In this document: in pieces, positions 791 through 48,304 of the stretch | Position numbering within the stretch: position 1 is the first letter of the stretch | How the letters are laid out: each line of letters starts with the position of its first letter | DNA from: Leucoraja ocellata | Lineage: Eukaryota | Assembly (NCBI GenBank): GCA_036785375.1 | Contig: JAWMAR010000384.1 | Location: 1,550,001-1,614,000 of the forward strand | Direction: 5' to 3' | DNA length: 64,000 nucleotides | Made by a program: the position numbers and the translations under genes | The notes under the pieces: generated by a model | Seen by the model: the letters and a program-made list of their open reading frames with translations, nothing else | What the model was told of the DNA's origin: nothing | The model's database searches: none

Positions 791-2259
791 ATAACATAAA
801 TAACTGCTTAAACTGAGCTGTAAATTACTTTTGAAGAAAGTACCTCAGTGTCACAAAGGGCGTTGGGACTATCTCGCCAATTCTATAATTGAAACTTCTA
901 ATTTGCGATATCTGCTAGCTGAAATATTGCTGTTTGAAAAATGTTTATCAGATAAATTGACCAGAAATAAGATGGATCAAAGAAATTATAAAGACCAGCA
1001 ATAATAAGAAACAAGGTAAAATATGGATCTGTGAATATGAATACTAATGAGACACATAAACTGGAGAATTGACCCTGGTAGCCAGTAACCAAGTCAGCTG
1101 TACTCTCTTGTCGGAAGTCAGGAGAATTATCACTGGTGAACTTTACCTGATGTATTGAACTGAAGACATTTTGCAAAAAGACAGGATTTTTAATTCATTC
1201 CCTTTATTTCCTTCAACTGTTATCAAATAAACAAATGTCACTATAATTCAGTATTAAAGATAACAATTTCAATTGCCAATTTCTTCATTAGCCCTAGAAT
1301 AAGAAAGTACACAAGCATACTCAGAAAATGTTTTTGTTTTGTGTAGGTTGCAATTATTGAACTTCCATTTTATCTATGAACATTTTTGTTTTTTGTTCTG
1401 TTTTCAATTATTTTTCAAGCCTTTTTTCTAAATGTGGTCCCATTTTATTTTAAATTTGTGTGGTTGTGTTTCTTGGCAATGCAGAGCTTTATACAGTATG
1501 TACATAGTTTTATTCGGTAAAAATAATCATTGACTGCGAAAACATGAAAGCACATCATTGAATATCAAAGGCAGATCTAGATCGGCAAAAGCAGATCTGA
1601 CATTCAGCCAATGGCACATGACATTGGAAATAGTTGACCTTTTAAGAATAAAAAGAGATTGAAAGTATATAATAGATTTATCACAGCTCGATCTCTGTTA
1701 AAAATAATTGCTCTGGAATGTGGTTCTCTAATAAATAAGTATCGCACCATAAGATTCTCATGGAAAATTGGAGAGATGGAATGAGCCTTCTGTTGTCTGA
1801 GACCTTCTTAACTGGGCTGCTGGCCAGTGTAAATTTTATTATATTGCCTTAGTTATTAGGTACATTTAGGATGCTGGCTTGTCTCTACAAATTTGAAATC
1901 CCATAGATGTATTTGATAGTGCATATATTTCTTATTTCCTTTCAGGGTTAGGAGAGTATTCAGCTCATCTACTATATGTTGGATCTCAGAGCAATCTCAT
2001 CAATTCCATTTTGTCATTCATTTCCCTGTCATCTGCACTTTCACATGTGTCCATTACATCTCCCTCTTACACTTACCACTTACACAAGGGTACATCATGG
2101 TAGCTGATTAAAGCCTTGAGACCTTTAAATTTTAAAGTTTAATCTTTCCGTTCTCTGGCAACGTACCTCAAAGCTGTATCATGCTGTGGCATTAGTTTAA
2201 TAATCATCTATGTTAAAAGTGGGTAAAAGTATAGGATCCAGTGTCTGGATTGGACTGAA

Positions 2260-2363
2260 GGTACACAAAAAAGCTGGAGAAACTCAGCGGGTGCAGCAGC
2301 ATCTATGGAGCGAAGGAAATAGGCAACGTTTCGGGCCGAAACCCTTCTTCAGATTGGACTTCA
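2260..2363 (-). mobile_element. Short Penelope-terminus insertion with hammerhead-like core
   Basis: Matches the terminus of the GIY-YIG element at 21204; 12-bp TSD gattggactgaa (2248-2259 / 2364-2375). Confidence 0.8.
2325..2352 (-). ncRNA. Minimal hammerhead-ribozyme-like motif (GUU triplet)
   Basis: Minus strand reads CUGAAGA A GGGU-UUCG-GCCC GAAAC GUU. Confidence 0.55.
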
Positions 2364-3789: not shown

Positions 3790-4935
3790 ATACCATCCCC
3801 ACACTGCCCACTTCTCTCTTTCCGTGCCTCACGCTGTCTGCTTCTATGTCCTTCCCAAAATCCACAAACAGTACTGCCCTGACAGACCCATTGTTCCTGC
3901 CTGCTGTGGACCTACCAAACTCATCTCCAAATACTTTGATTCCACCCTATCTCCCCCCCCCCCCCCCCCCCCTTTGTTCAGTCCCTTCTGACTTACAGCT
4001 GAGTTACCTCACTCGGATTTCAACTCTGCAATAACTTTCTGTTTTCTAGCCCCAGGATCTTACCTTAACCATGGATGTCCAGTCCTTTTACATAGAAACA
4101 TAGAAATTAGGTGCAGGAGTAGGCCATTCGGCCCTTCGAGCCTGCACCGCCATTCAATATGATCATGGCTGATCATCCAACTTCCATCTTCCACCAGGAT
4201 GATCTCCAGTTCTTCCTAGAACAGAAGCCTAATCCATTTACCTCCACTAACACTCTTCTCCATCTGGTGGAACTTGTCCTCACCCTCCACTCACTTTCTC
4301 CAAGTTTAAGGTGTGGCCAACAGGGACCAGACTATTGACTGATGTCTACTACAAAGCTACCAATTCCCACAGTTATCTGGACTACACTTCCTCCCACCCT
4401 GCCTCTTACAAAGGCGCGATCCCCTACTCTCAAGTTGGTCTCCACCACACCTACCCTCATCTACTGCATCCAGTACATCGGTGAAACCAAGTGTAGACTC
4501 ATCGACCATTTTGCTGAACACGTGATCGGTCTGCCAAGACCTGCAGGATCTCCCCGGTTGCTATCCATTTTAACTCCTCCCCCCCCCCCCCCCATTCCCA
4601 TACTTACCTTTCCATCTTGGGCCTCCTCCATTGCCAGAGTAAGGCCACATGCAAACTAGATGAACAACACCTCATATTCCGCTTGGGTAGCTTACAACCC
4701 GATGGTAGATATAGAATACCTCCAATTTTAGATAACTACATAACCCTCCCCCTCGCTCTCTTCCCCCATATAAACCTCTCTCCCCTGTTCTCCACCTGGA
4801 CTAGCACATATTTCTCCCTCCTCCTCCCCTTCCACCTACATTCCTTTCTCCAGTGTCACAATTTGTAACTCTTTAATCCTTTTGTCTCACGTCTTCCGTC
4901 TTTTCATCTCTAGTCTTTGTCCAAACATCAGCCTA
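3790..4935 (+). mobile_element. Decayed Penelope-like retroelement (RT and GIY-YIG fragments), interrupted by a CR1 3' end
   Basis: Broken frames give FYVLPKIHK, TMDVQS (RT) and IYCIQYIGETKCRL, LEEQHLIFRLGSLQP-like (GIY-YIG); pyrimidine-rich 3' tail. Confidence 0.8.
4091..4182 (-). mobile_element. CR1 LINE 3' terminus nested in the Penelope remnant
   Basis: catagaaacatagaaattaggtgcaggagtaggccattcggcccttcgagcctgcacc is the reverse complement of the tail at 45770-45849. Confidence 0.85.
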
Positions 4936-18899: not shown

Positions 18900-21203
18900 G
18901 TTAGTACAGTATTTAGCTTTCACAATAATTACTGTGCAATGTTTCTCTTTATATATTAATACGAATAAAACAACAAAATGTTGTGAAAGCCAGATGGTGC
19001 AAGTCTTCTCAGCATGGACCAATTTCAATGAATAAATGAAAATAATTTTTAAGAACAAAGTTCCAGCTGTGCTTCACCACCAGCACCAAATATAGATCAT
19101 GGCTCTAACTTGGGAATTTTTGTCACACATCTGTGTGTTTGTATCAGAGCAGGGGGGTGTAGGAATACTAGGGATTGCAAGAAATATATGAAATCTCTAA
19201 CTTGTTTTCAGTTTATTTCATTATGTATAATCACTCCTTTGCAGCATGAGTTAAGTTCATGGACTTCATCGACCTTTGTGCATGACATTTCTACTGCAGA
19301 CATATTTAAAACACGTGTGTATATAAGTTTGTATTGTTTACCTTTTGCCTTGTAGAAAGTCCAAAACCCTTTTCAAACGCTGTTCACTTTATTGGCCACC
19401 AGGGGATGCACTAAGCTAGTGAAGACATAAAGTGTAAACTAAAATGATCGGACATCTGCTTCTCCAGAACGGACAATGGCACCTGAACTAGTAACTAGTG
19501 TCATGTTGCTAATCCCCAAAGGAATGCACTTCAAATTATTAATGCATGTTCCAAGACTGCTCTACTGTGAACCTGAGCCTAAAGAGGATAACTGCTTATC
19601 ATGTTCCTAAACCTTCCCATGTGACACATACTATTTCAGGAGCATCTGGAGCAGATATATTTAAGTACTTATTCTACTTTGAGAAAAGGGTGTGATCAGC
19701 AGTAGGAATGTGTGCTGCCCATGACCTTGGTGAGACGATTCTGGGGCAAAACAGAATCAACCAACAGAACCAACAGGAAAGCATTAAAAAACTGCATTGA
19801 TAGTCCGTTAAATAATCTTGATCACATCTTTGGTATTTTATATATCAGTATAGATTCTCTACTAGAGGCTCACTCAAAGTTTTAAAGAGCCTTTGAGTGT
19901 TATGATAATCAAGTAAATCCCTCCTTTAGGTTTAAATAGAATTGTTCAAACCATAAATGTAACTTCTTGGTTTTTATTCAGTGCAGTGTTCCATTATGGC
20001 ACTCTGTATTTTATTATAAATGAACAATTTCAACTTGGTCTTCCCCGTTTCTGGTAATGCTGTTTAATTGTAAGAGGGGAGGGGTGAAGTTTTCTCCAAT
20101 GGGAGTGGGTCATGTGCAAATCAATGGGTTCAGTTTCAAGTTGGTAATTAACCTTTTAGTAATTACACAGTTCTGAGTCTTCTTTTGAAGGCTTGTATCA
20201 TGCTTCATGAATCTTTCAGAAGATGTTTTTGTCAGCTCGGCTTCCTTAATGAACCTCATCATGCTTTTAAGTCTGTAAAAATGGGATTTAACAGATTTTC
20301 CTTCAGCCTGCAACTGCAGCTGTCTTCATTGTTCCACAGCATTATTTATGTCACCGAGATATCTTATTAAGGTTTGAGTTTTGATGGTTCACATTTAATG
20401 AGCCTCGTGAACAAATATTGATTTGATCATGGGAGTTTTTGCTATCTACTGTTGTGACAGAGCTTCACCTCCACCCTGTAGAATTAGGGAAGCCATTCAG
20501 ACCCATAAATTCTAAAAGCTGGCAGGATTATGAAGCTGATCCACAGGAGACCAATTATACTGTTGTTTTAATTCATTTTCAATTCGGCTATTAACATTAG
20601 ACCTTCATTCACAGAAGAGGAAAATGTTACTGAGTTCCACCCTTTCCTTGACGCATTCACAGAAATTGGAGGGTGGTGCATTCCAAACATTCTGTAAAAG
20701 GAAGCACATTATTGCTACTGTGAGCTGTTCTGTCTCATTGAGCATAGTTTTGTACCAACCAGGAACAATTGGAACCTTGAAATTAGATTACCCCTCAAAC
20801 TTCTAAACTTGAGGGAACGCAAGCAGATTTTTTGCAATATTTCTTAATTCAACCTTTCAAGCCCAATATCATTATTGTGCATCTGTGCTCTACATCCAAG
20901 GATGTTGTTTAGTTTATTTTGGAGGTATAATATGGAAATCTGCCCTTCAGCCCTTGACTCCATATGTCTTTGGGATATGGGAGTGTAATATGTTACACAA
21001 GGGAGATTCAGCATTTCTGAGGTGCAGTATGCAAAACTAATCAAAAAAATCACCAGGTAGAGGCCAAGTAAAGCACTGTTCGACCCGAGCATAAGCTCCT
21101 CTGTTTCTTCCTTCCAACATTCACGTTAACATGTTTTAATACATTTTATACATGTACACTTATTTCAGTGCTTTGATCACAGTAAGCACCAAATCACTGT
21201 TTA

Positions 21204-22092
21204 AGAAAAAACTGCAGATGCTGGAAAAATCAAAGGTGGACAAAAATGCTGGAGAAACTCAGCGGATGAGGCAGCATCTATGGAGCAAAGGAATAGGCGA
21301 CGTTTCGGGTCGAGACACTTCTTCAGACTGAAGGGGGGGGTGGGGGGGGGGGGGGGAGGCGGGAAAAAGAAAGGAAGAGGCAGAAACAGTAGGCTGTGGG
21401 AGGTGGGGAGGGGAGGGGAGGGGAAGGAGGGAGAAAGCAAGGACAACCTGAAATTGGAGAATTCGATGTTCATACCGCCTGGGTGTAAATTACCCAAGCG
21501 AAATATGAGGTGCTGCTCCTCCAATTTACGGTGGGACTCACTGTGGCCATGGAGGAGGCCCAGGACAGAAAGGTCGGATGCGGAATGAGAGGGGCAGTTG
21601 AAGTACTGAGCCACCAGGAGATCAGGTTGGTTAATGCAAACTGAGTAGAGGTGTTGGGCAAAGTGATTGCCAAGCCTGCGCTTGGTCTCACCGATGTAGA
21701 GCAGTTGACACCTGGAACAGCGGATGCAGTAGATGAGGTTGGAGGAGGTGCAGGTGAACCTCTGACTCACCTGGAAAGACTGCTTGGATCCTTGGATGGT
21801 GTCGAGGGGGGAGGTAAAGCGACAAGTGTAGCAAGGGAAAGTACCAGGGGGAAGGGGTGGTTTGGGTGGGAAGGGACGAATTGACCAGGGAGTTACGGAG
21901 GAAGTGGTCTCTGCGGAAAGCCGACGGGAGGAGATGGGAAGTTGTGGCCAGTGGTGGGATCCCGTTGGGAATGCAAAATTGTCGGAGGATTATGTGTTGT
22001 ATGTGACGGCTGGTAGGGTGGAAGGCCTGGTGAAAGCCTCATCTATAGTCGAAGAGGGGAATCCCCGTCCCCTAAAGAATGACAAAATCACT
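21204..22092 (-). mobile_element. 5'-truncated Penelope-like element: GIY-YIG endonuclease C-terminus plus terminal repeat with hammerhead-like motif
   Basis: Minus ORF FTCTSSNLIYCIRCSRCQLLYIGETKRRL...LEEQHLIFRLGNLHPGGMNIEF; 10-bp TSD tcactgttta (21194-21203 / 22093-22102). Confidence 0.9.
21299..21326 (-). ncRNA. Hammerhead-like motif downstream of the GIY-YIG coding region
   Basis: CUGAAGA A GUGU-CUCG-ACCC GAAAC GUC on the element's sense strand; one stem II mismatch. Confidence 0.55.
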
Positions 22093-24074
22093 TCACTGTT
22101 TAGCTTCTGGTCTCATGGTATTAAGAAAAGGATTGGATTTTTTGGATCAAAGCCGATGTTCTCATAGTTCCTTTATTTAATGCTATTTTGCTCAATAGAT
22201 ATCCCTTTGTAATTACTTTCTTTAATCCAAACAGCATCCACAGACATTGAAACAGATGGCAAAAAGAAGCATAAACAAATTAGAAACATTGACTGGGATG
22301 CATTATATTTCACTGCCTTGACTTCCTGTTCTGAGAAATATCAGTGTTAGCTACAGTACTTGCTCCCCGAGTTAAAAGATTATTTTTTATTTAGAGATTT
22401 ATCCTGGATTGCCACTACAGAGTGCAATTACCTTTAGAGTGCAGCATCCAGAATTCTGGATTGTTAACCCAGAGGCTTCAGTTTAAATCTCACCATTGTA
22501 TTTTCAGGAATACTCAAATGCTCGGAATAAAATCTACAATTAGGAAAATAAACTGGCTGCTGAAATGGTAGCTATGAGACCACTAGATTTGGATAAATAC
22601 TTAAATTAAGAAAATGAAGTTATGGAGAAAAAGAATGACTGTAGGACTAATTAGATTTATCAAAAAGATATGCTGAACCAAATGGCTGCTAGCTATTCCA
22701 TATAATTGTTTGATGATGGCAAAAATCACTTTAAAATGGTCTTTAGTAGCTTTGGAACCTTGAAGTCATGTATAAAATCTTTTTTTTTAATTTTCTGAAA
22801 TGTAATCCAATGGTGAATTGACAATGAAAAGTGTAATCTCCATTATTAATCAATAATCATATTATATGAAACATCGTTTTTTCTGAAAATTACACAGATA
22901 AAAATAAATCAGTGAAGCAGTCATACTCGAGCGTGATTGCCTGGTAATAGATTAAAGATGTAATATCTCTGAATAGCAATAATTCTGTTAGGACTACCTG
23001 TTTTTCATATAATTCTCGTAACAGCTTTTATATTTTTCCATATTAGTAACTGCTTTGTTTCTTGGCTCTGCTTTTATTTAAATGGAATTTTCCAAAGCAT
23101 TGACTTACATGTGCAAATAATATTGCATGCTGACAAACTCACAGCAACAATCTCTTCCCATCTGTGCCAAAGCATGCTTCTTTCTGTTTTGTGTTACTGA
23201 AAGATATTCAGTCAGGCACATAGTGGATTAAAAAAGTTCAACATGTTAAAACACCTGGCAAAGTGAAGAATAATATTCCATTGCTGATGTACGATTTCCA
23301 TTCCTCTTAAGTCAAAGTGACTAAAATCTCAGGGAATCTGAATTAGAATGAATTTTCAACATTTTTGATGACTCATTACTTCAATAATTACCACACATTG
23401 TTGGCACTCCTTTTAATTAGTGTGTAGAAATGCAGCCAAAGCATTCACATCAACTGAACTTCCACTGGGGAAAAAAGACGAGAAAGCTAAACAAATTAGG
23501 GCTATTTATTTATTCCCAACTTCTCAAGAATATAGATACTTCAGCATCTTGCATTAGTATTTAAATAGCTATTAATAGCTCATGACAATTTTTTATTCCT
23601 CAATAGCTATTAATGGCATGATAAATTTTAATTCCTGAATTTAATAAAAACAATTTTTTAGATGTTGGCCTGGAAGAAGTCAACGCTTGTTCGCTGAATT
23701 TGGAGGATTTTGTAGAGATAACATTGGTATTTTTACAATGTTTTATGGTGCCTGCTATAGGAAGTCTGGGTCTCAGTAGCAAAAAGCGGACTGGGATCAA
23801 TGCCGCCCAGTTGACCATATGTTCTCCGCAAGGTCTGATCTTGTATTGGGTCTTGTAGAAAGCTAGATTACTTCGTAACAGAAAAATATTTCTCCATGTC
23901 ATCTCTTGCTCCATGATGCATTGCCAAAATGTTTGTACAATTATACTCCAGATTTATTCAAACTTTCACCTGTCCAACATACCACTAATACAAATAAAAT
24001 TGTACAGCTGCATGATACAGATACAATGAACACAAGAAAACATAGTGTATCTTTTTTCTGTTTAACTTTCATAG

Positions 24075-28651: not shown

Positions 28652-28865
28652 GTAAGATTTGGTCCACTTTTGAATTGGAGTTTACGGCTGTAAATAAGGG
28701 CTACAAGTAAATTATGTGGGAGGGAGGGGAAGCCAGGGAGTTCCTTGAAATTTCTCCTGCATGGAAGTAGTCTCTTGTCACAGATTGAAAGCCCATTGAT
28801 AATCTCAGCATTCATGTAGTCTGATTATTGCTGGAGCTCCATGAAATGAACAATGAATAGTTGCT

Positions 28866-29299
28866 GTGTAAAAAGGAACTGCAGATGCTGGTTTAAACCG
28901 AAGATAGTCACAAAAAGCTGGAGTAACTCAGTGGGACAGGCAGCATCCCTGTAAAGAAGGAATGGGTGACGTTTCGGGTTGAGACCCTTCTTTAGTATAG
29001 CTAGGGATAAGGGAAATGAGAGATATAAACGGTGATGTGAAGAGATAATGAACAATGAATGAAAGATATGCAAAAATGTAACAATGATAAAGAAAATGGG
29101 AAGCTAGTGCGACTTGGGTGGGGGAGGGATAGAGAGAGAGGGGGAATGCTGGGGCTACCTGAAGTGACAGAAATCAATACTCATACCACTGACCTGTAAG
29201 CTGCCCAAGTGAAATATGAGATGCAGTTCCTCCAATTTCCATTTAACTTCACTCTGACAATGGAGGAGACCGAGGACAGAAAGGTCTGTGTAGACAATT
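28866..29299 (-). mobile_element. Truncated Penelope-like element (end of GIY-YIG plus terminus), hammerhead core mutated
   Basis: Homologous to 21204-21570; 10-bp TSD aatagttgct (28856-28865 / 29300-29309); core reads CUAAAGA. Confidence 0.8.
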
Positions 29300-30439: not shown

Positions 30440-30830
30440 CGCCAAATTGGAAAAGGCAATATCTCGTATTCCACTTGGTAACGTACAACTCAATAGTATG
30501 AATATTGAATTTCCCAATTTCAGTTAACCCCACACCACCAGTGCTCACCATCCATACACACTCGCCTGTCTACCTAGTTTTCACCTTCCCATCCCCTCCT
30601 TCACATGGTTCCGTCTGCCCATCATCCACTCCCCACCTATCACCTATTTGCTTCTACCCCATGCCCAACCTACTGCTCTATAATGCAAATTGTTCCTGTT
30701 CCCTGATGCAAGGACATCAACATGAAATGTTGACTGGCACCGTTTGCCTCCAAAGATACTGTTTAACCCACTGAGTTTTTCCAGAGTTATATTTTTGTTC
30801 TGGATTACAGCATTTATAGTTTATTTTGTC
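30440..30830 (+). mobile_element. Old Penelope-like 3' end
   Basis: aaattggaaaaggcaatatctcgtattccacttgg...atgaatattgaatttcccaatttc, then a decayed terminus (cctgatgcaagg...gaaatgttgac...ccactgagtttttccag). Confidence 0.65.
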
Positions 30831-34640: not shown

Positions 34641-36120
34641 AAGCCACAAATTTAAAGATACAGACACTTTCCAACGTACGTAATAGGCAACTTAAGTGTG
34701 AGGTAAACTCACACTTAAACAATTCTTTAAGCCTACTGATACCCACGTGGTCTCCGTTTCGAAGCTCCCCTGTGGTTTCCGCATCGGAGCTCCCCTATGG
34801 CCCCCGCAGCGAAAGTCCCACATGTGTCTGAGTCGGACCTCCCCATGGTCTCACGGTGAATAGGAAATGTACGCATACACAGTAGCATTTCTTTTAGGAC
34901 TTAAAGTAACGCACGGGTCTGTGGGGCCTAACCTTACCAAGTTGGGGAGTGCCTGTAGGTAATTTATTGCCATGTGCACAGATATTCAGTGAAATGCTTG
35001 CTATGCATGCTATCAAATCAAATCATACTTTCCAAGTATAATAAATACTTGTCTGGAACAGTTTGCAGAGAGTCGCTAAGTTTCGGTGCCATCTTGCTGC
35101 TTCCAAGTCTTTGAAAAGCCCGATCTTGGCCCAAAGGAGATATACAATTTCTTATTTTCTCACATTAAGCCCCAGTCCTGGCAGCACTGGATCAATGATG
35201 TAGGGCTTGACCTGACCCAGCGTGATGTCCAGCACTTTCCAACCCTGCTGTGTGCAGCTATTGCAGGCTGTGTTTGATTCACTTGCTCACATGGCTGCTA
35301 CAAGGCGTCTTGCAGCCCACTCCACCAATACCATGACCCACGACCACTGCAAATGCACTGTGCAACGCTGCCATCAGCTGCTCCTTCACTTCCATATGCT
35401 GAGGTTGCCATGTGCTGCCTTCTGAGCCTATCGCACAACTTCAGAGTGCTTTCCGACGTAGGTTTGCAGACTGTTCACTCTTGCCGACTTTCCCCTTCAC
35501 ATTCCACCACCGCCATCTTGGTCTAATTCTCATCCAAAATAAATAAAAGGACCGAAAGCAATGAGTAATATTAGAATATGAACTATTTCCAAAATGATGG
35601 CATCAAATGAGAAAGATTAATGTGTGTATAATCACACAGAGAATATAAATATGAATGAGAAAAAGGCACAAGAAGTTGCATGGAACTATAAAACAGTAGC
35701 ATTATAGAGATCTGACTCGGACAGAAGATTGAATGATGACTTGATATTCTAGAACTGCTTTGTATTCAGGAAAAATAAGAAAGGGCAAAATAAAATATAA
35801 TGTGATAATGTTGATCAAAGTTACTGTTACTGCACCAGAAAAGATTGCTTGATATCAATGTCAATAACCTTATGATAAAAGGGACTTTTAAAGTAGGGAG
35901 GTAACAGTGTAAAGGAGAGGAGGGAAGATTTCTAAAAATGTTTGCGTTTTCTAGATCTGTTTGTTTCCATCAATGAGAAGTTCTGTATCTAGTTACAGGG
36001 ATGAAGTAGGGCAAGTGATGTATGTTTCTGTCGAAAAGTAATTGGGGAAACTGGGACCATGGTCAGGTTTAGAATAGTGATGGAAAATGAAAAAGGAAAG
36101 CAGGATCTGTAAGAGTTCAA

Positions 36121-36333
36121 GGTACACAAAAAAGCTGGAGAAACTCAGCGGGTGCAGCAGCATCTATGGAGCGAAGGAAATAGGCAACGTTTCGGGCCGA
36201 AACGTTGCCTATAGGGTTTCGGCCCGAAACGTTGCCTATTTCCTTCGCTCCATAGATGCTGCTGCACCCGCTGAGTTTCTCCAGCTTTTTTGTGTACCTT
36301 CGATTCTCCAGCATCTGCAGTTCGTTCTTAAAC
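36121..36333. mobile_element. Palindromic (head-to-head) Penelope-terminus insertion
   Basis: Near-perfect inverted arms; 15-bp TSD tctgtaagagttcaa (36106-36120 / 36334-36348). Confidence 0.85.
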
Positions 36334-38518
36334 TCTGTAAGAGTTCAACTGGTTGAAGTTGAATTCAATATGTCAATGGCATTTTGTCACATGTACCAAG
36401 GTGTACTGAAATTCATTTTTGCATGCAGTTCAGTACAAGTATCTGTACGTAGGCATTGTAAAGAGATTGAATCAAAACAACTGTACTTTGAGAAGATAGT
36501 AAGATTGATTAAATTAGCGGGTTACGCACAGGTGCAGGAGGCAGCCCCGACTGTCATTGTTGTAGTGGAGAAAGATTCATGGAATGGTGTTGAGGTATGT
36601 TTGGAATAAGGACTGTTCAACAAAACCAAGAAAAGGGCTGCCTTATCAGTGGCTCATGCGAGTGCCCATGGCTACAACTTTAACTTGAAGAAGTGAGAGG
36701 AGTCAATAATAGTCCAAAGAATGCTTTTGACCCGAAACATAATCTATTCATTCCCTCCAGAGATACTCCCTTAGCGCCAAGTTACTCAAGTACGTTGTGT
36801 TTTAATCATATTGGTTGCTTGTTCCTGCAGCGCACCAATCTTATTTCCCATGTTCTATGCACATTTATGCAAATATATTCATCTTAAACTGCCTTGACTT
36901 TCTTCCCTGTCTGATCCTTCTTGTTTATGAAATATCCTCCATTCCAATTCTGTTTGTTTCTTCCAGACCCTTTTTCCCAGGCACATTTTGTCTCCTCTAA
37001 TGCTTCATCCAGGGCCCTGACCTCTGCAAATGATTTGTGGAAAGATGTCTAACCAAGCCAATCGGTTCTGATAGATTCAGTGGGGGTGGGGTTGTTTTAT
37101 GTCCAAATTGTTCTGTCTGTTGTGAACCAAATGTTTGAGCACCCTCTAGTCTGTGCCTTATTGTCAGGAGGGTATCTGCCTTGAGACTAATAGTGTCCTG
37201 CAATGACTGAATGACAAGTGTAAGCTTAATATGTTGTAGCACTATTATCCTTCAACTGTAATGAGTACAAAAAGGGGCTGTACAAACAGATGAATCAAGC
37301 AGCTAGGATGTTGCTGAAGGATTAAATATGGGCAAATTAATTATATGATTGAATTGCTGAAAGCAAAATGGTTCTTGCTGATAACTTTTGGACAGCATTT
37401 GTTAGGTACAAGTGCAGCAGCACCTGTACAGAGTAGCCATAATGATAGGATATTTATAACTAACCTATTTGTTTTGCTTGTCTCTAGATGAACTTTGCAG
37501 CCCCTTAATAATCATACATCTTCCAGCAGATGGTGCAGTGTTTATATAAACCAGTCTAAAGTCAATCAGTGGATGAGTAATGATTGGGAGATCTCAGAAT
37601 AAATAGGTATAGATGAAAGCTATTTTCTTGAGGTAGAAAGGAAGGGCAGCTAAAGCTAGAGTCTCTGGCTAACTAAAAATATAAAGATTAAAGGTGCTGC
37701 AAAAACTGATAACCTAGAGCTATAGAAACCATCCCATTTCTTTAATTACAGGCCAAAAGATGTTTAAGATATCTGCCACTCCAATTCCAGAATATTGGTC
37801 ATTTGGAAATTAAACCACTCCATTACTGCAAGCTGCCTGCCAATTGAAAGCTCAGGAAATACCCTTCTGAAATTTCTCCACCTCTCTTCACAAAGCTCCA
37901 CAACTTAACATTTTTGGCAATGCCTTTGCACATCATCATTACTTTTGTAATGCTGCTATGCAGAGCCTTGGGATGTTTTGCAACGTTATAGTTAAAAAAA
38001 AAATTATTATAATTTATGAAAGTTGTTGTTGTGAATTCATTAATTTGCTCGTCACATGATAAGTTATGCTTGTGGTTACCCGATGAGTTCTAATAACTTT
38101 GGCACAGATAAATTCAGGTGTTTGATGTTTTTTTGTGGAGGCTCCTTGCTCCCTCACTAAGTGTCAGATATGGGGCAGACCCTCTCGGTAGAGCTTAGAT
38201 TGTGTAGATTGTATCTGCATTCAGACTGATACTGGTATTGACCGAGTGGTAAATGTAAGCTTAAAGCACTATGGCCGATTATTCTTCAATTTAATGTGTA
38301 CGGAAAGCAAAAATACAATCCTTCACGCCAGGTGTTTTAGGTAGCCAGCACATTACTGAAGGATTCGATACTGCAGCCTTGATTACACGATTCAATTGCT
38401 GGAAGTGAGAGGTAACTCTTGATCACAACTCTGGATGGCATCAGTCAGCTGCAAATGATGCAGCAACTTGTGCAGACCAGAGGCAAAACTTGTATATCGT
38501 GGAGCTAACCTCGGTTGT

Positions 38519-38700
38519 AGGTACACAAAAATGCTGGAGAAACTCAGCGGGTGCAGCAGCATCTATGGAGCAAAGGAAATAGGCAACGTTTCGGCCCGAA
38601 ACGTTGCCTATTTCCTTCGCTCCATAGATGCTGCTGCATCCGCTGAGTTTCTCCAGCATTTTTGTGTACCTTCGATTTTCCAGCATCTGCAGTTCCTTCT
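38519..38700. mobile_element. Second palindromic Penelope-terminus insertion
   Basis: Inverted arms around gtttcggcccgaaac; 13-bp TSD taacctc(g/t)gttgt (38506-38518 / 38701-38713, one mismatch). Confidence 0.85.
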
Positions 38701-40759
38701 TAACCTCTGTTGTGTTTGTCTGTAGGTAGAATTTGCATCAACTTAGCAATAAGCTGCTTTTGGCAGATGGTGCAGAGCTGAGGGTTATTTAGATTGACCC
38801 AGCAACATCATGTAAAATGTGCACAAGCTCGAAAGCTGTGCTTTTCGGCTCTTAACAGGTGCTACTGAGAGATTGAAATATGCATTCATTTAAACAAGAC
38901 CGTACACAACATGCATAGTAGCAGTTGACAGCTTGATGGGTACCAGAACGGATGAAATGGTAGCAGAAAGGAAGTTGTGTTGTCTTCCCTGTATTCAGTA
39001 GCCCTCTCTGAGAAAGGTGAGAAGTCCGGACTTATTTCAAAGAAGAAAATGGCCATAACTTTTGAAATACTAAATAACAGGACATTTTTTTCTTCTGTGG
39101 TTGAGGTGAAGGTGATAAAACATTACAACCTTTGTTTATGCTCATGGAGCATTGAAAATTGGTTGCAAATGCAAATATTGAAATCATTGATGCTGACAGT
39201 GGTGATTTTTTTTTTTAATTACCCGTTTCTCAATTATTTCCCAAAAAACATTTCACAAATAACAGTATTTTAAGTACGTGAAATAAATTAATAACATTGT
39301 GAATAAGTCTTAGTTTATTCAAGTAATTTGAAGCATTTTTAAATTGTTGGAGGTTTGACATGAGAATGTAAAATAATAAAAAAAATACATGAGACACCAG
39401 TCTGCATTTGAAAGGGAAACAACTGGTTAAAATTTTAGTGAAGCCTCTGGAGTCCCATGTCTTTGTACCTTTAATCTCTCTTCAATTTCTCTATTGCTGA
39501 CAAAATTGCTGTGCATTTCCGGTGTTTTATTTTTTTTATTGCAAGGAAAAGCTTGAGATTGTTTTTGTTTTCGATGAACCACGAGAACCTCGTACCGAAG
39601 GTCACCTTGCGACTAATGCAGTGAGTGAATGGTCTTACTGCACGTACTATGTACCGCACTATGTCTCATTCATCATACTAACAGCCTGCAGGAGGCTGGC
39701 TTTAACTGAGAAAGATCCTCCTCCTTTAGGTGCCACATTGAACCAAGGTAGTAAGTGAATGCGAGCTGTTCTCATTAATTCAAGCCACTGCCTCAGTAGG
39801 ACATCTGGCAACCTAATTGGCTATACCATCCCCCTCCTCAATGCAGTGCAATAACATTGAGGAGAATGTTGATGAGATGTGTGTTGACGATAGTCAGAAA
39901 ATTAAATCACAGCCCGTAATGTCTTGGTTCTTGTTGAGATTCAGGCACATACTCAGTATTCCTCACTAGAAAATAAGCATCTTATTTTCACTTTTGAGAT
40001 GCAACAACTAAATGCCCACCGCTGATTTTTGATACTCCAAGGCACAGCTGCATCTGACTTTGTTTCCTCCATTCATTACTGGTTAACTTTTGCTAAGTAA
40101 TGTGTGCCTAAGAATGTGATGCTACGTTGATATTTGCTTCAATAATTATTCACTGTATCTTAGCAACCTGCTAATGGATGACTGATGATGCATTTCTGAA
40201 AATCCCTTCCTTCACAGGTGCTTTGCTGACCACAGTAAATCACTCTGTGCTTGAAGCTTCATTTAACTCGTAGAAGCCCTTTTGATTCTTTGCTTTTTTT
40301 TCCAATGGGCCCTCGTCTGTACGTCAAGCAGTTAAAGCACCAGTATATTTTTCAACAGTAAACAAGGGCATTTGCTGTGTTCCTGCCTGCTGCCACAGCA
40401 ACATGTTTTGCTTCCAGCAAAGAATACAACAATCTGATCGACTCCACCCTGGTGTGCAATATGAAAATTCTAAATGACTGCTATAGTCCTTGAAAGCAGT
40501 AAGGCAGTCACATTGTCAGGAGTCAGGGACCTGCAGGCATCAGAGTTTGGAAATATAATTATTTCACAACTGCTAAATAATGCAATATCTTTCAAAGAAA
40601 ATGTTCTCTTCCACCTTTTGGCTTGACTCTGACTTGATTTTCTGCAATAGCTGAACAAACCCTAAATGTATAAAGAATTGTTTTGCATGGTAAGATGGCC
40701 AAAGCCAATTGAAGGTGTGTAATCAACATTATAAAATTTGACAATGCCAGAGAAGGATT

Positions 40760-43084: not shown

Positions 43085-44281
43085 CAGGTGCACAACCTTT
43101 TATCCGAAAGCCTTGGGACCAGACACTTGTCGGATTTCGGACATTTTCGGATTTCAGAATGGAAGATTTTTAGCGTAGATTAGGTAGGTAGCGCGGGCGG
43201 CTTGAAAAGTCTGGAGCAGCTGCCTCCTCCCTGGAGACCGGGAGAATCATTGCATAAATGTTAGTCAGTTAGTTTGGAGGGATTTTATGTGGTGGTGGTG
43301 GTGTAGGGGTGAAGGGGGAAACTTTAATTCTTAGTCCCCTACCTACCTGGTCGGCGACTCCCAACCTCGCGGAGCTGGGGGCTCCGTCCGGCCGCGGGCG
43401 GCGCCGGTTGTAGCTCCGACCCCGGCAACTCTACCCCTGGCTGCGAGGCGCTCCAAATCCAGCGCGGCCCGCGGCCGGACGCCCCAGCTCCGCGAATGTC
43501 GGGAGTCGGCGGCGTCGCAGCGCTGGGATAGCAAGCTCCGGAGCGCTGTGGCCGCCTTCTTCCAACATTCGCGGAGCGTCGCTGGATTTGGAGCCGCGGA
43601 GCTGGGGGCTCCGTCCGGCCGCGGGCGGCGCCGGTTGGAGCTCCGACCCCGGCAACTCTACCCCTGGCTGCGCGGCTCCAAATCCAGCGACGCTCCGCGA
43701 TGTTGTGTGTCGGCGGCCACAGCGCTCCGGAGCTTGCCGCACGGCGACCCGGTAAGGCAGTGCCCGCACCCCGCTGGTATCCCATCGCTGCGACGTCGCC
43801 GACTCCCGACATTCGCGGAGCTGGGGCGTCCGGCCGCGGGCCGCGCTGGATTTGGAGCGCCTCGCAGCCAGGGTTAGAGTTGCCGGGGTCGGAGCTACAA
43901 CCGGCGCCGCCCGCTGCCCCACCGGCCACAGCGCTGCGGAGCTTACTGCACGGCGACCCGGTAAGGCATTGACCGCTCCCCGCCTCTCCGACCAGGTAGG
44001 GGACTAAGAATTAAAGTTTACCCCTTCACCCCCCTTCACATAAAAGCCCTCCAAACTAACTGACTAACATTTAAGCAATGATTTACAGATGTTTAAGCGT
44101 CTCCCGTTCTCCAGGGAGGAGGCAGCCGCTACAGTAGTACAGACCTGGGTTGACCGTGGGTCGTTTTGGGTCAGGTTTGGCGCCAAACGCGAGCTTTGGT
44201 GCGCAGACGACATCTGGAAAAAATGGCCGGTTTTCGGAGCTTTTCGGTTTCTGGAACACCGGATAAAAGGTTGTGCACCTG
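43085..44281. mobile_element. Non-autonomous Tc1/mariner-superfamily (Tigger/pogo-like) element with a GC-rich foldback core
   Basis: 22-bp perfect TIRs caggtgcacaaccttttatccg (43085-43106 / 44260-44281) flanked by TA on both sides; internal inverted repeats. Confidence 0.9.
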
Positions 44282-45364
44282 TAGATAATCTTGTTCCTAG
44301 TTCCATGACATATGGAACCATGAACTATGTGTATTCTTTTAACACAGCATCAAAGCAACATTGGACACATTGTTTGTTCAGTTTCCCATCAAGATAAATT
44401 CTCCCATGACCATTAGATTCCTTTTTCTATCTCTTTCTTTTTCCATTAGCACAATTTTTTTACAAGACTAAAATATACCCATCAGGGCTTCGTTGAGGTT
44501 TTTGGAATCGGCAACATTGTTCTACGAGGGCAAGATTCGTTTTTTTGCTTTGCCATTATGTCACCATTTAACATCTGAGCTCCTCCAATCACCCCAACAC
44601 ACACATCTTCAATCAGTACCAACACAACCATCATTGTTTCTATGATCTTTCTGAACTTTGGAAACATTTAGTTTATAACCACCCATGTAACCACTTCCGA
44701 GCCACTACTATTGACAAATTATCCTACTTCAAAACTCTGAAGAGTTTTCTCCTGTTTTCTGTGCTGACCATTCAATGTTTAGGTCTTTTTTCAATTACTA
44801 CTAAAAGCAGTCTACCCTATCCCAACCCTTTCATCATTAAATCCTACAATTTCACCCTATAATCTGCATTGCTTGAATGAAAAAGATCAGACCTTTTATG
44901 CCTTTCATCTTGTGTTTGTATTTCCATAGGTCAGACTTCATCTGGTTTTGCATCGCTGCCCCAACTTCTAATTATAGTTGTACATAAATTAGTTTATATT
45001 TAATTATGTTATGGCTGTAACTTCTATTTGTCATATTTAAATAGTTTTGCACGTACTAGTGCCTGATTACATATTGATGATGTCAAGAAACTACATAACT
45101 ACTCTAGTCTCCGACAGTTACAGCTACTCCTCCGTAACCATGTTCTGGTTGAATTAATGTTGTTCATTAGCTAATTACTATTCAGCGAGTGTCTGATTTT
45201 TATCTGTTCATGCCAGGAGGGGAGAATTAGAGATTTTGACCTGGGCTCTAGACATCAGCTGCATTAACAGGCAACATTTATCTTTCTGCCTGAATGAAAT
45301 ATATACAGACAAAAATGGGCAAATATTTGAAAGAAATGTAGAACTAAATAGGCACTGTACTTCC

Positions 45365-45849
45365 CAGACTGATTCCTGGGTTGTCAGGACTTTCATATGA
45401 AGAAAGACTGGATAGACTCGGCTTGTACTCACTAGAATTTAGAAGATTGAGGGGGGATCTTATAGAAACGTACAAAATTCTTAAGGGGTTGGACAGGCTA
45501 GATGCAGGAAGATTGTTCCCGATGTTGGGGAAGTCCAGAACAAGGGGTCACAGTTTAAAGATAAAGGGGAAATCTTTTAGGACTGAGATGAGAAAAACAT
45601 TTTTCACACAGAGGGGGGTGAATCTGTGGAATTCTCTGCCACAGAATGTAGTTGAGGCCAGTTCATTGGCTATATTTAAGAGGGAGTTAGATGTGGCCCT
45701 TGTGTGGCTAAATGGATCAGGTGGTATGGAGAGAAGGGAGGTACAGGATACTGAGTTGAATGATCAGCCATGATCACATTGAATAGCGGTGCAGGCTCGA
45801 AGGGCCGAATGGCCTACTCCTGCACCTATTTTCTATGTTTCTATGTTTC
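45365..45849 (+). mobile_element. Young CR1 LINE 3' fragment
   Basis: Open frame GLSYEERLDRLGLYSLEFRRLRGDLIETYKILKG...NLWNSLP; (ttctatgt)n tail. Confidence 0.92.
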
Positions 45850-46795: not shown

Positions 46796-47500
46796 GTTCA
46801 TAAGTTATAGGTGCAGAATTAGGCCATTCGGCCCATCAAGTCTACTCCGCCATTCAATCATGGCTGATCTATCTTGCTCTCTCAGCCCCATTAGCCTGCC
46901 TTCTCCCCCGAATGACTCGTACTAATCAAAAATCTATCAATCTCTGCCTTACAAATATCAATTGACGGCCTCCGCAGCCTTCTTTGGCAATGAATTCCAC
47001 AAATTCACCACCCTCTGACTAAAGAAGTTGCTCCTCATCTCCTTTCTAAAGGTATGTCCTTTTATTCTTAGGCTTTGGTCTCTGATCCTAGACTCTCCCA
47101 TAAGTGGAAATATCCTCTCCACATCCCCTCTCCCCAGGCCTTTCACTATTCGATAAGTTTAAATGAGGTGCCCCCTTATCCTTCTAGATTCCAGCAAGTA
47201 CAGGCCCAGTGCTGTCAAGCGCTCATCATATGTTAACCCAATCATTCCTGGGATAATTCTCGTAAACCTCCTCAGGACCCTCTCCAACACCAGCACATCC
47301 TTCCTCAGATATGAGGCCCAAAACTGCTCACAACACAAATGCGGTCTGACCAGTGCCTTATAAAGCCCCAGCCTGATTTTATATTCTAGTCCTCTCGAAA
47401 TAAATGCTGCCATTAAATTTGCCTTCCTTACTTCCGATTTGACTTGGAAATTAAATCTTAGGGAATCCTGCACCAGCACTCCCAAGTACCTTAGCACCTT
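46796..47500 (-). mobile_element. CR1 LINE 3' fragment
   Basis: Minus ORFs LYKALVRPHL...LERVLRRFTRIIPG and RVVNLWNSLP. Confidence 0.9.
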
Positions 47501-48304
47501 CAATTCTGCATTCATTGTCATTGCCAACATGAAGAAATTCGACTATTCTCAACAGAGAGACAATTCTCCAATTGTCTCTCTCACCTGTTCATCCTCTGAG
47601 TGTCTCTTTCCCTTCTTGTCTTTGATAAGGTGTTAACCAAAACCCACTTCCACAACTACAACTCTTTCCTTAGCATCAAATTCTGAATGTTTCAGCAGAG
47701 CTTGGGCTCTGAAAAAAAAATTCAGGAGGTTTCCTAAAATCATGCCATGACATTTATTAACAAATTATTCTCCATGCTTTCTGTTATGAAGTCAATTGCC
47801 ACTTACCAATTTCTTTGAAATCTGCCATTGAATTTGAATTTTTACCAAACAGCTCAAGTTCTGCATCAAAATTAACCTGTCTTCATTTTAAAAGTTTATT
47901 TCGACCTATTTTCAGGTTCCTTCTATATTAACTATGGTTCGTTGCACCTAATTATTTTTGATCAACAAAGTTACCACACAGAGTAAATAAAGACATAAAC
48001 TGACTTGCTGAGTTACTCCAGCACTCTGTATTCTACGCAAAGCACATTTATGTGAACAACATGCTCCCTGCTATATTAACTTCCGTATTCTTAAGGGCTA
48101 ATAATATAATCGTAAGTAAATGATACAACCCTGCTGCAACATATTTGGATATTCATTTCCTTTGTTAATATCAGAATAATCACTTTATTCTTTTCCAAGG
48201 TGGACAGAAAATAATCAATAAACTATTTTCATGAATTTGGCCCATTTTGAACATTAATGCTGCAAAGTTCTGAGGTAAGTATAGGAAGGAAGGTTTACAC
48301 TGGA

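Follow-up and report, generated by a model that had tools for sequence, protein, structure and literature searches.

The window analysed here, that is, the whole stretch of 64,000 nucleotides, carries on its minus strand a Penelope-like element copy of about 890 bp that is 5'-truncated and frameshifted. Its coding remnant (21447..22082, defined by tblastn and homolog alignment) consists of the end of the reverse transcriptase (RT), the only part of the RT retained, a cysteine linker and a GIY-YIG endonuclease; the element thus has an RT followed by a carboxy-terminal GIY-YIG domain, as in endonuclease-positive Penelope-like elements. The homologs P0001 and P0002 match it from 22082 to 21447 in tblastn (E 1.6e-49), and its identity to named shark and ray proteins is 47-55%, which suggests that the genome is of cartilaginous-fish type. 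The Pfam GIY-YIG match of the remnant itself is below the cutoff (E 0.0045); P0002 matches GIY-YIG and, below the cutoff, RVT_1. P0001 is a stingray gene model that is named for a host kinase-domain protein and is mostly Penelope-like RT and endonuclease. The CX2-5CxxC linker common to Neptune and Nematis elements (PMC8557442) is present in 99 of the 160 homologs and partly deleted in the host copy, where it is about five codons shorter, and the host element is likely of Neptune type, as judged from these sequences. A 262-aa frame that runs on through the downstream motif was rejected as a real fusion, since the family carries a stop at the endonuclease end (21446-21444) and the read-through results from a private change.

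On the same strand there follow a spacer of 120 nt (21328..21447), the core of a putative ribozyme (21299..21326), the 3' part of the terminal repeat (21233..21298) and an optional 3' tail of about 32 nt (21201..21232). The tail is defined by copy ends: among six that align well, three lie at 21233-21234 and three at 21197-21201. An optional tail of 30-40 bp has been described for Penelope-like elements (PMC8557442, PMC11167929), and 5' truncation, inverted copies and an optional tail, all described for endonuclease-positive members, are all found among the window copies. Flanking duplications, another typical trait of such elements, also occur. A candidate 10-bp target-site duplication (21194..21203, with its partner at 22093-22102) is the longest word shared by hand-chosen flanks, has no shuffle control and overlaps the end of the tail.

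The core motif and its stems

Minimal hammerhead ribozymes (min-HHR) have been described in the terminal repeats of metazoan Penelope-like elements by Cervera and de la Pena (2014, PMC4209133), with a consensus that includes an extra base after A9, a G10.1-C11.1 pair and a palindromic helix III. The corresponding layout can be read directly from the minus strand here: CUGAAGA (21326-21320, C3 to A9), an extra A (21319), a 12-nt stem-loop (21318-21307), GAAA (21306-21303), C and GUC, with C17 at 21299 and the predicted cut between 21299 and 21298. The first-pass annotation had placed this motif 3' of the GIY-YIG region on the same strand, and it is indeed there, 118 nt behind the remnant; the link to the RT and GIY-YIG remnant is likewise a direct observation. 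The consensus features present at 21299-21326 are the CUGANGA and GAAA boxes with an NUH triplet, the unpaired A21319 between positions 9 and 10.1, and the G21318-C21307 pair, which is G10.1-C11.1. The pattern CTGANGA-N4-30-GAAACGT has three matches in the window (2326-2352, 21300-21326 and 61136-61162) against 0.01 expected, and none of 100 shuffles reached three, a count that overstates the evidence because copies of one repeat are not independent. None of the 13 Rfam matches (E up to 5) is to a hammerhead family. The motif is almost certainly the minimal hammerhead of Penelope-like elements. The earlier proposal of a minimal type I hammerhead in a Penelope-like terminal repeat therefore stands in its match to the published consensus; the extra A after A9 that it had singled out as special is already part of that consensus (CUGANGAH; Fig. 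S3 of PMC4209133), and covariation within the family, which it had named as a check, was not supported, as described below.

For stem II and its loop (21307..21318) the first-pass annotation gave no sequence from this copy. They read GUGU-CUCG-ACCC, where positions 10.2 and 11.2 (21317/21308) form a U.C mismatch; the hairpin is predicted at +3.8 kcal/mol, whereas the three sister copies lie between -3.4 and -3.7. Helix II is continuous in the copies at 2352, 28995 and 61162 and broken in that at 21326. A pairing G occupies 21317 in 98.6, 99.2, 93.5 and 93.5% of the depth in the related contigs of runs X1, X6, X19 and X24, so the mismatch is largely private to the 21326 copy, and an intact stem II is directly observed in most related contigs. 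The stems quoted for the sister copies lie within 1 nt of where they had been placed. As its stem II is mismatched, the 21326 copy is likely among the copies least able to cleave.

Covariation within the family does not exceed that of shuffled controls. Among 11 window copies, 72.5% of cells are paired against 71.1% after shuffling, with 194 of 500 shuffles as high; the counts do beat slid controls, but the structure was derived from these same sequences. The change from U-A to U-G in one subfamily, which had been read as conservation of the stem, is one-sided and not compensatory.

Stem I (21297..21328) has 2 bp in this copy, as first estimated, formed by U21327 with G21298 and G21328 with C21297, and the third pair would be A.C. 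Two pairs are fewer than the 3-bp consensus (usually 3-5 bp) and equal to 6 of 56 published rows (PMC4209133). Position 1.1 (21298) is G in the 21326 copy and A in 45-79% of related depth; only A or G occurs there among the listed variant rows, and either pairs with U2.1. Because no variant row is listed at 21328, 21327 or 21297 in the four related contig sets, the 2-bp stem I looks family-wide. Helix III is replaced, as had been noted, by the palindrome ACGU (21303-21300); under the dimer model of PMC4209133 it would pair between two molecules, with a computed duplex energy of -1.7 kcal/mol.

The predicted folds of the window copies do not favour the hammerhead. Stem I has a pairing probability below 0.01 in each of the four copies folded, although the 5' strand of the family is missing from three of them. 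Only the 61162 copy forms stem II; in the other three (21326, 2352 and 28995), competing folds bury the core. In the 21326 copy, TCAGTCT and its neighbours are predicted to form a hairpin that buries CUGA. Special stability of the downstream fold was considered and rejected (z -1.72; -0.43 for the whole region).

Family members within and outside the window

Three sister copies carry the motif on the minus strand. Two are short, of about 94 nt, and belong to different subfamilies: 2258..2352, of the UUCG-loop subfamily, and 61069..61162, with an intact stem II. Both run from C3 (exactly so in the second) to the inner 3' end point and each has a 12-bp flanking duplication (2248-2259/2364-2375 and 61057-61068/61163-61174); since they begin at C3, their 5' flank supplies no stem I. 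The third (28864..29286, defined by alignment and tblastn) belongs to another subfamily and retains the endonuclease end, and its core reads CUAAAGA, so that G5 has been changed to A. With the mismatch, the lost G5 and the starts at C3, none of the window's copies is a complete, intact motif. The core is retained in two subfamilies that differ in loop and flanks.

The window also contains fold-back pairs of the terminal repeat at 36119-36333 and 38519-38703, which are joined inside the motif at a small internal palindrome and carry the tail on one arm only. The former has a perfect 15-bp flanking duplication, and both would yield a long hairpin RNA if transcribed; miRNA-like Rfam matches at 36133-36308 and 38540-38649 were rejected as miRNA, being these fold-back copies. 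More decayed Penelope-like pieces, including RT remnants, lie at 3797-4731, 30444-30523 and 36544-36687. Elsewhere are a GC-rich stretch of repeated and inverted units with overlapping open frames on both strands (43335-44010), frames at 45348-45773, 47159-47542 and 54041-54490 that resemble CR1/L2-type LINE remnants, and runs of N (61817-61962 and 62003-62410).

Related records were aligned to 21190-21520 (331 bases) at 80% likeness in 4 of 24 listed sequencing runs, all of them contigs labelled as four organisms, their status as RNA being a guess; 7893, 1686, 84446 and 79808 records were aligned per run. Variants were taken from the 40 of 62 rows that were listed, the lowest of which peak near 9%, the remaining rows presumably being smaller. 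Besides 21317, the variants listed in 21327-21299 affect a single loop base (2-11%) and the CpG of ACGU (4-11%). On these rows, and disregarding private changes, constancy in the core does not significantly exceed that in the 3' flank: sites of high variation number 0 of 29 in the core and 7 of 67 in the flank (p=0.098), and sites with any listed variant 3 of 29 and 11 of 67 (p=0.54). Coverage is deepest, above that of the core, over 21250-21273 in all four runs. The block downstream of the motif at about 21250-21280 has a wider distribution than the core, also among decayed copies; it holds an ATG at 21277, which, taken as an ORF start, gave no match to the amino termini of the best 20 of 160 homologs. 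As old repeat copies decay neutrally, the tests of constancy, covariation and fold are weak in both directions. The abundance of the family in the two large runs would make it a good data set for analysing both core constraint and the candidate intron discussed below.

A pattern combining the same core with GGG-N6-CCC, in which stem I was not demanded, gave at least 130 matches in at least 121 loci of other families: none in viral contigs, one in genome contigs and at least 120 loci in metagenomes, where 41 of 64 parts of the collection were covered. None of the metagenome loci matches the family's 3' flank, and they consequently inform on the motif class and not on the host family. Penelope-like protein matches occur in 28 of those 121 loci. 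In the 125 matches with flanks, stem I is 0-1 bp in 13, 2 bp in 26 and at least 3 bp in 86, and H17 is never G. Over 31 flank types, the first stem I pair forms in 87% and the second in 68%, compared with 63% and 44% after shuffling (shuffles as high: 3 and 41 of 10000). The third pair shows no such excess, 2286 of 10000 shuffles being as high. Across these outside families the paired positions of stem I change together. The flank types are related, several being decayed variants of three large families, and the shuffle counts are not probabilities. One of the 160 homologous proteins, P0004 from zebra shark, continues past its endonuclease and through the same core (LMKG..PKR). In a contig filed under a bacterial genome (L001, 1501-1690), the motif adjoins a Penelope-like endonuclease end, and this contig is likely animal DNA in a bacterial bin. 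A looser pattern found 81 viral loci and one bacterial locus, which were taken as chance, a loose CTGANGA lying upstream in 2 of the 82.

The spacer, proposed activity and rival readings

The spacer between the endonuclease and the core (21328..21447) starts with GT, ends with CAG, is 88% pyrimidine and is a candidate intron. The family letter at 21445 creates both the TAG stop and CAG|GTAG in 95-100% of depth, and a donor-like site lies on the stop codon in both endonuclease-bearing copies with the motif, the second at 29158. At the other end, TCAGTCT (21325-21331, minus strand) fits a splice acceptor and also the initiator consensus YYANWYY. The 15 joints listed (128 more exist) include no exact splice joint, and the 24 loose ends listed (1119 more) include none at the cut site, neither being evidence either way. 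The idea that splicing completes stem I was rejected, as the spliced and unspliced forms give the same five bases.

With good confidence, we read the locus as a copy of a likely Neptune-type Penelope-like element, truncated at its 5' end and frameshifted, whose 3' terminal repeat carries a minimal type I hammerhead motif. This copy is itself likely inactive, while intact sources would cut as a dimer, likely aided by protein. Given its mismatched stem II, the 21326 copy is very probably inactive and a likely dead relic. Intact family members have an even or slightly better than even chance of cleaving. The RNA of intact source elements would be cut by the motif after GUC. By analogy with other species, this would require two molecules joined through ACGU and, likely, the element's own protein to hold the weak 2-bp stem I together, and cutting may serve to process tandem transcripts. 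The motif is of a known class, and the 21326 copy is an ordinary example of the published kind that adds little by itself.

That the resemblance to the hammerhead consensus arose by chance inside a repeat is very improbable. The Rfam result and the non-independence of the window copies would allow it, but the motif sits where such motifs are published for Penelope-like elements and has all the consensus extras, and the same core recurs in unrelated animal families whose stem I pairs differ; position and the cross-family stem I result largely refute a chance match. It is possible, though we doubt it, that the motif descends from a hammerhead but has lost cleavage throughout the family, where it would be a passive passenger or be maintained as a binding site for protein, a promoter or a splice boundary. 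Such a loss would fit a stem I of only 2 bp whose first pair is U-A or U-G, competing folds that mask the core of three copies, and pair counts no better than shuffles. It would also fit the report that ribozyme mutants of the Anolis element left in vitro insertion unaffected, with no reads ending at the cut site (PMC11167929), and the spread of Naiad elements without canonical hammerheads (PMC8557442). However, the CpG of ACGU is the only core variant among the 40 listed rows in four runs, a 2-bp helix I is seen in 6 of the 56 published rows, and the core persists in two subfamilies whose loops and flanks have diverged.

Another reading, which we consider unlikely, places the motif at a regulated boundary, either an intron running from the endonuclease stop to the base before helix I or an initiator at TCAGTCT, so that processing would decide whether the ribozyme folds. 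The composition and ends of the spacer and the donor-like sites in both endonuclease-bearing motif copies point this way, as do the departure of gene model P0001 from Penelope homology right after FSNFR, at the donor-like site, the Drosophila virilis Penelope intron that ends at helix I (PMC4209133), the clustering of loose ends, among those listed, at 21328-21333, and the start of two short copies at C3. Against it, UUCAG precedes U2.1 in the 21326 copy with or without splicing, so that stem I is not lengthened, the AG is absent from this place in most outside families, and an acceptor and an initiator are mutually exclusive as sole explanations. A broader scenario, that a very abundant Neptune family of shark and ray type combines a retained intron (from the endonuclease stop to the first base of helix I) with a near-stemless, protein-dependent hammerhead and spawns mini-elements of about 94 nt starting at the catalytic core, is quite improbable; if true, it would offer a vertebrate setting in which to ask why an intron and a weak ribozyme are both retained by Penelope-like elements.

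Comparison with known systems

The literature search found no paper on the host family or on an intron at this site, which is not proof of absence. The preferred reading, a minimal hammerhead of a likely Neptune-type element, has its closest counterpart in the min-HHR of PMC4209133, where Neptune elements of fishes are mentioned and the min-HHR are reported to give no cleavage as monomers and low cleavage as dimers. Shared features are CUGANGAH, the G10.1-C11.1 pair, GAAA, the palindromic 15.2-16.2, NUH, a pyrimidine-rich 5' flank and a site 3' of the endonuclease in 5'-truncated copies. The 4-bp helix II, in contrast, is at the short end of the published range, and the 2-bp helix I has U-A or U-G as its first pair, whereas the six published 2-bp rows have G-C; none of the 56 rows of Fig. 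S3 is from a cartilaginous fish.

The animal non-LTR retrozymes (bioRxiv 10.64898/2026.07.22.740005) are similar in being short hammerhead pieces related to Penelope-like terminal repeats. The copies here differ in that they are dispersed, single or fold-back, two of them with endonuclease remnants, with no tandem array in the window. That study sampled one chondrichthyan genome, and one of nine Xenopus dimers cleaved.

The D. virilis Penelope hammerhead (PMC4209133, PMC2377424) also has a 2-bp helix I, whose 5' side marks the end of an intron, at the place of the acceptor-like CAG here. The D. virilis intron is proven, whereas the spacer here is a candidate intron only, and the D. virilis motif differs in its 6-bp bulged helix II and its 2-nt palindromic helix III insert.

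The Anolis element PAc (PMC11167929) resembles the present family in being a vertebrate element with a hammerhead in its terminal repeat and a tail delimited by two 3' end points. Its motif is reported to cleave only with protein, cleavage not being required for insertion in vitro (Frangieh et al. 2024, PMC11167929). PAc is a Poseidon element with an ORF beginning at stem II, whereas the homologs of the element described here carry the Neptune-type cysteine linker.
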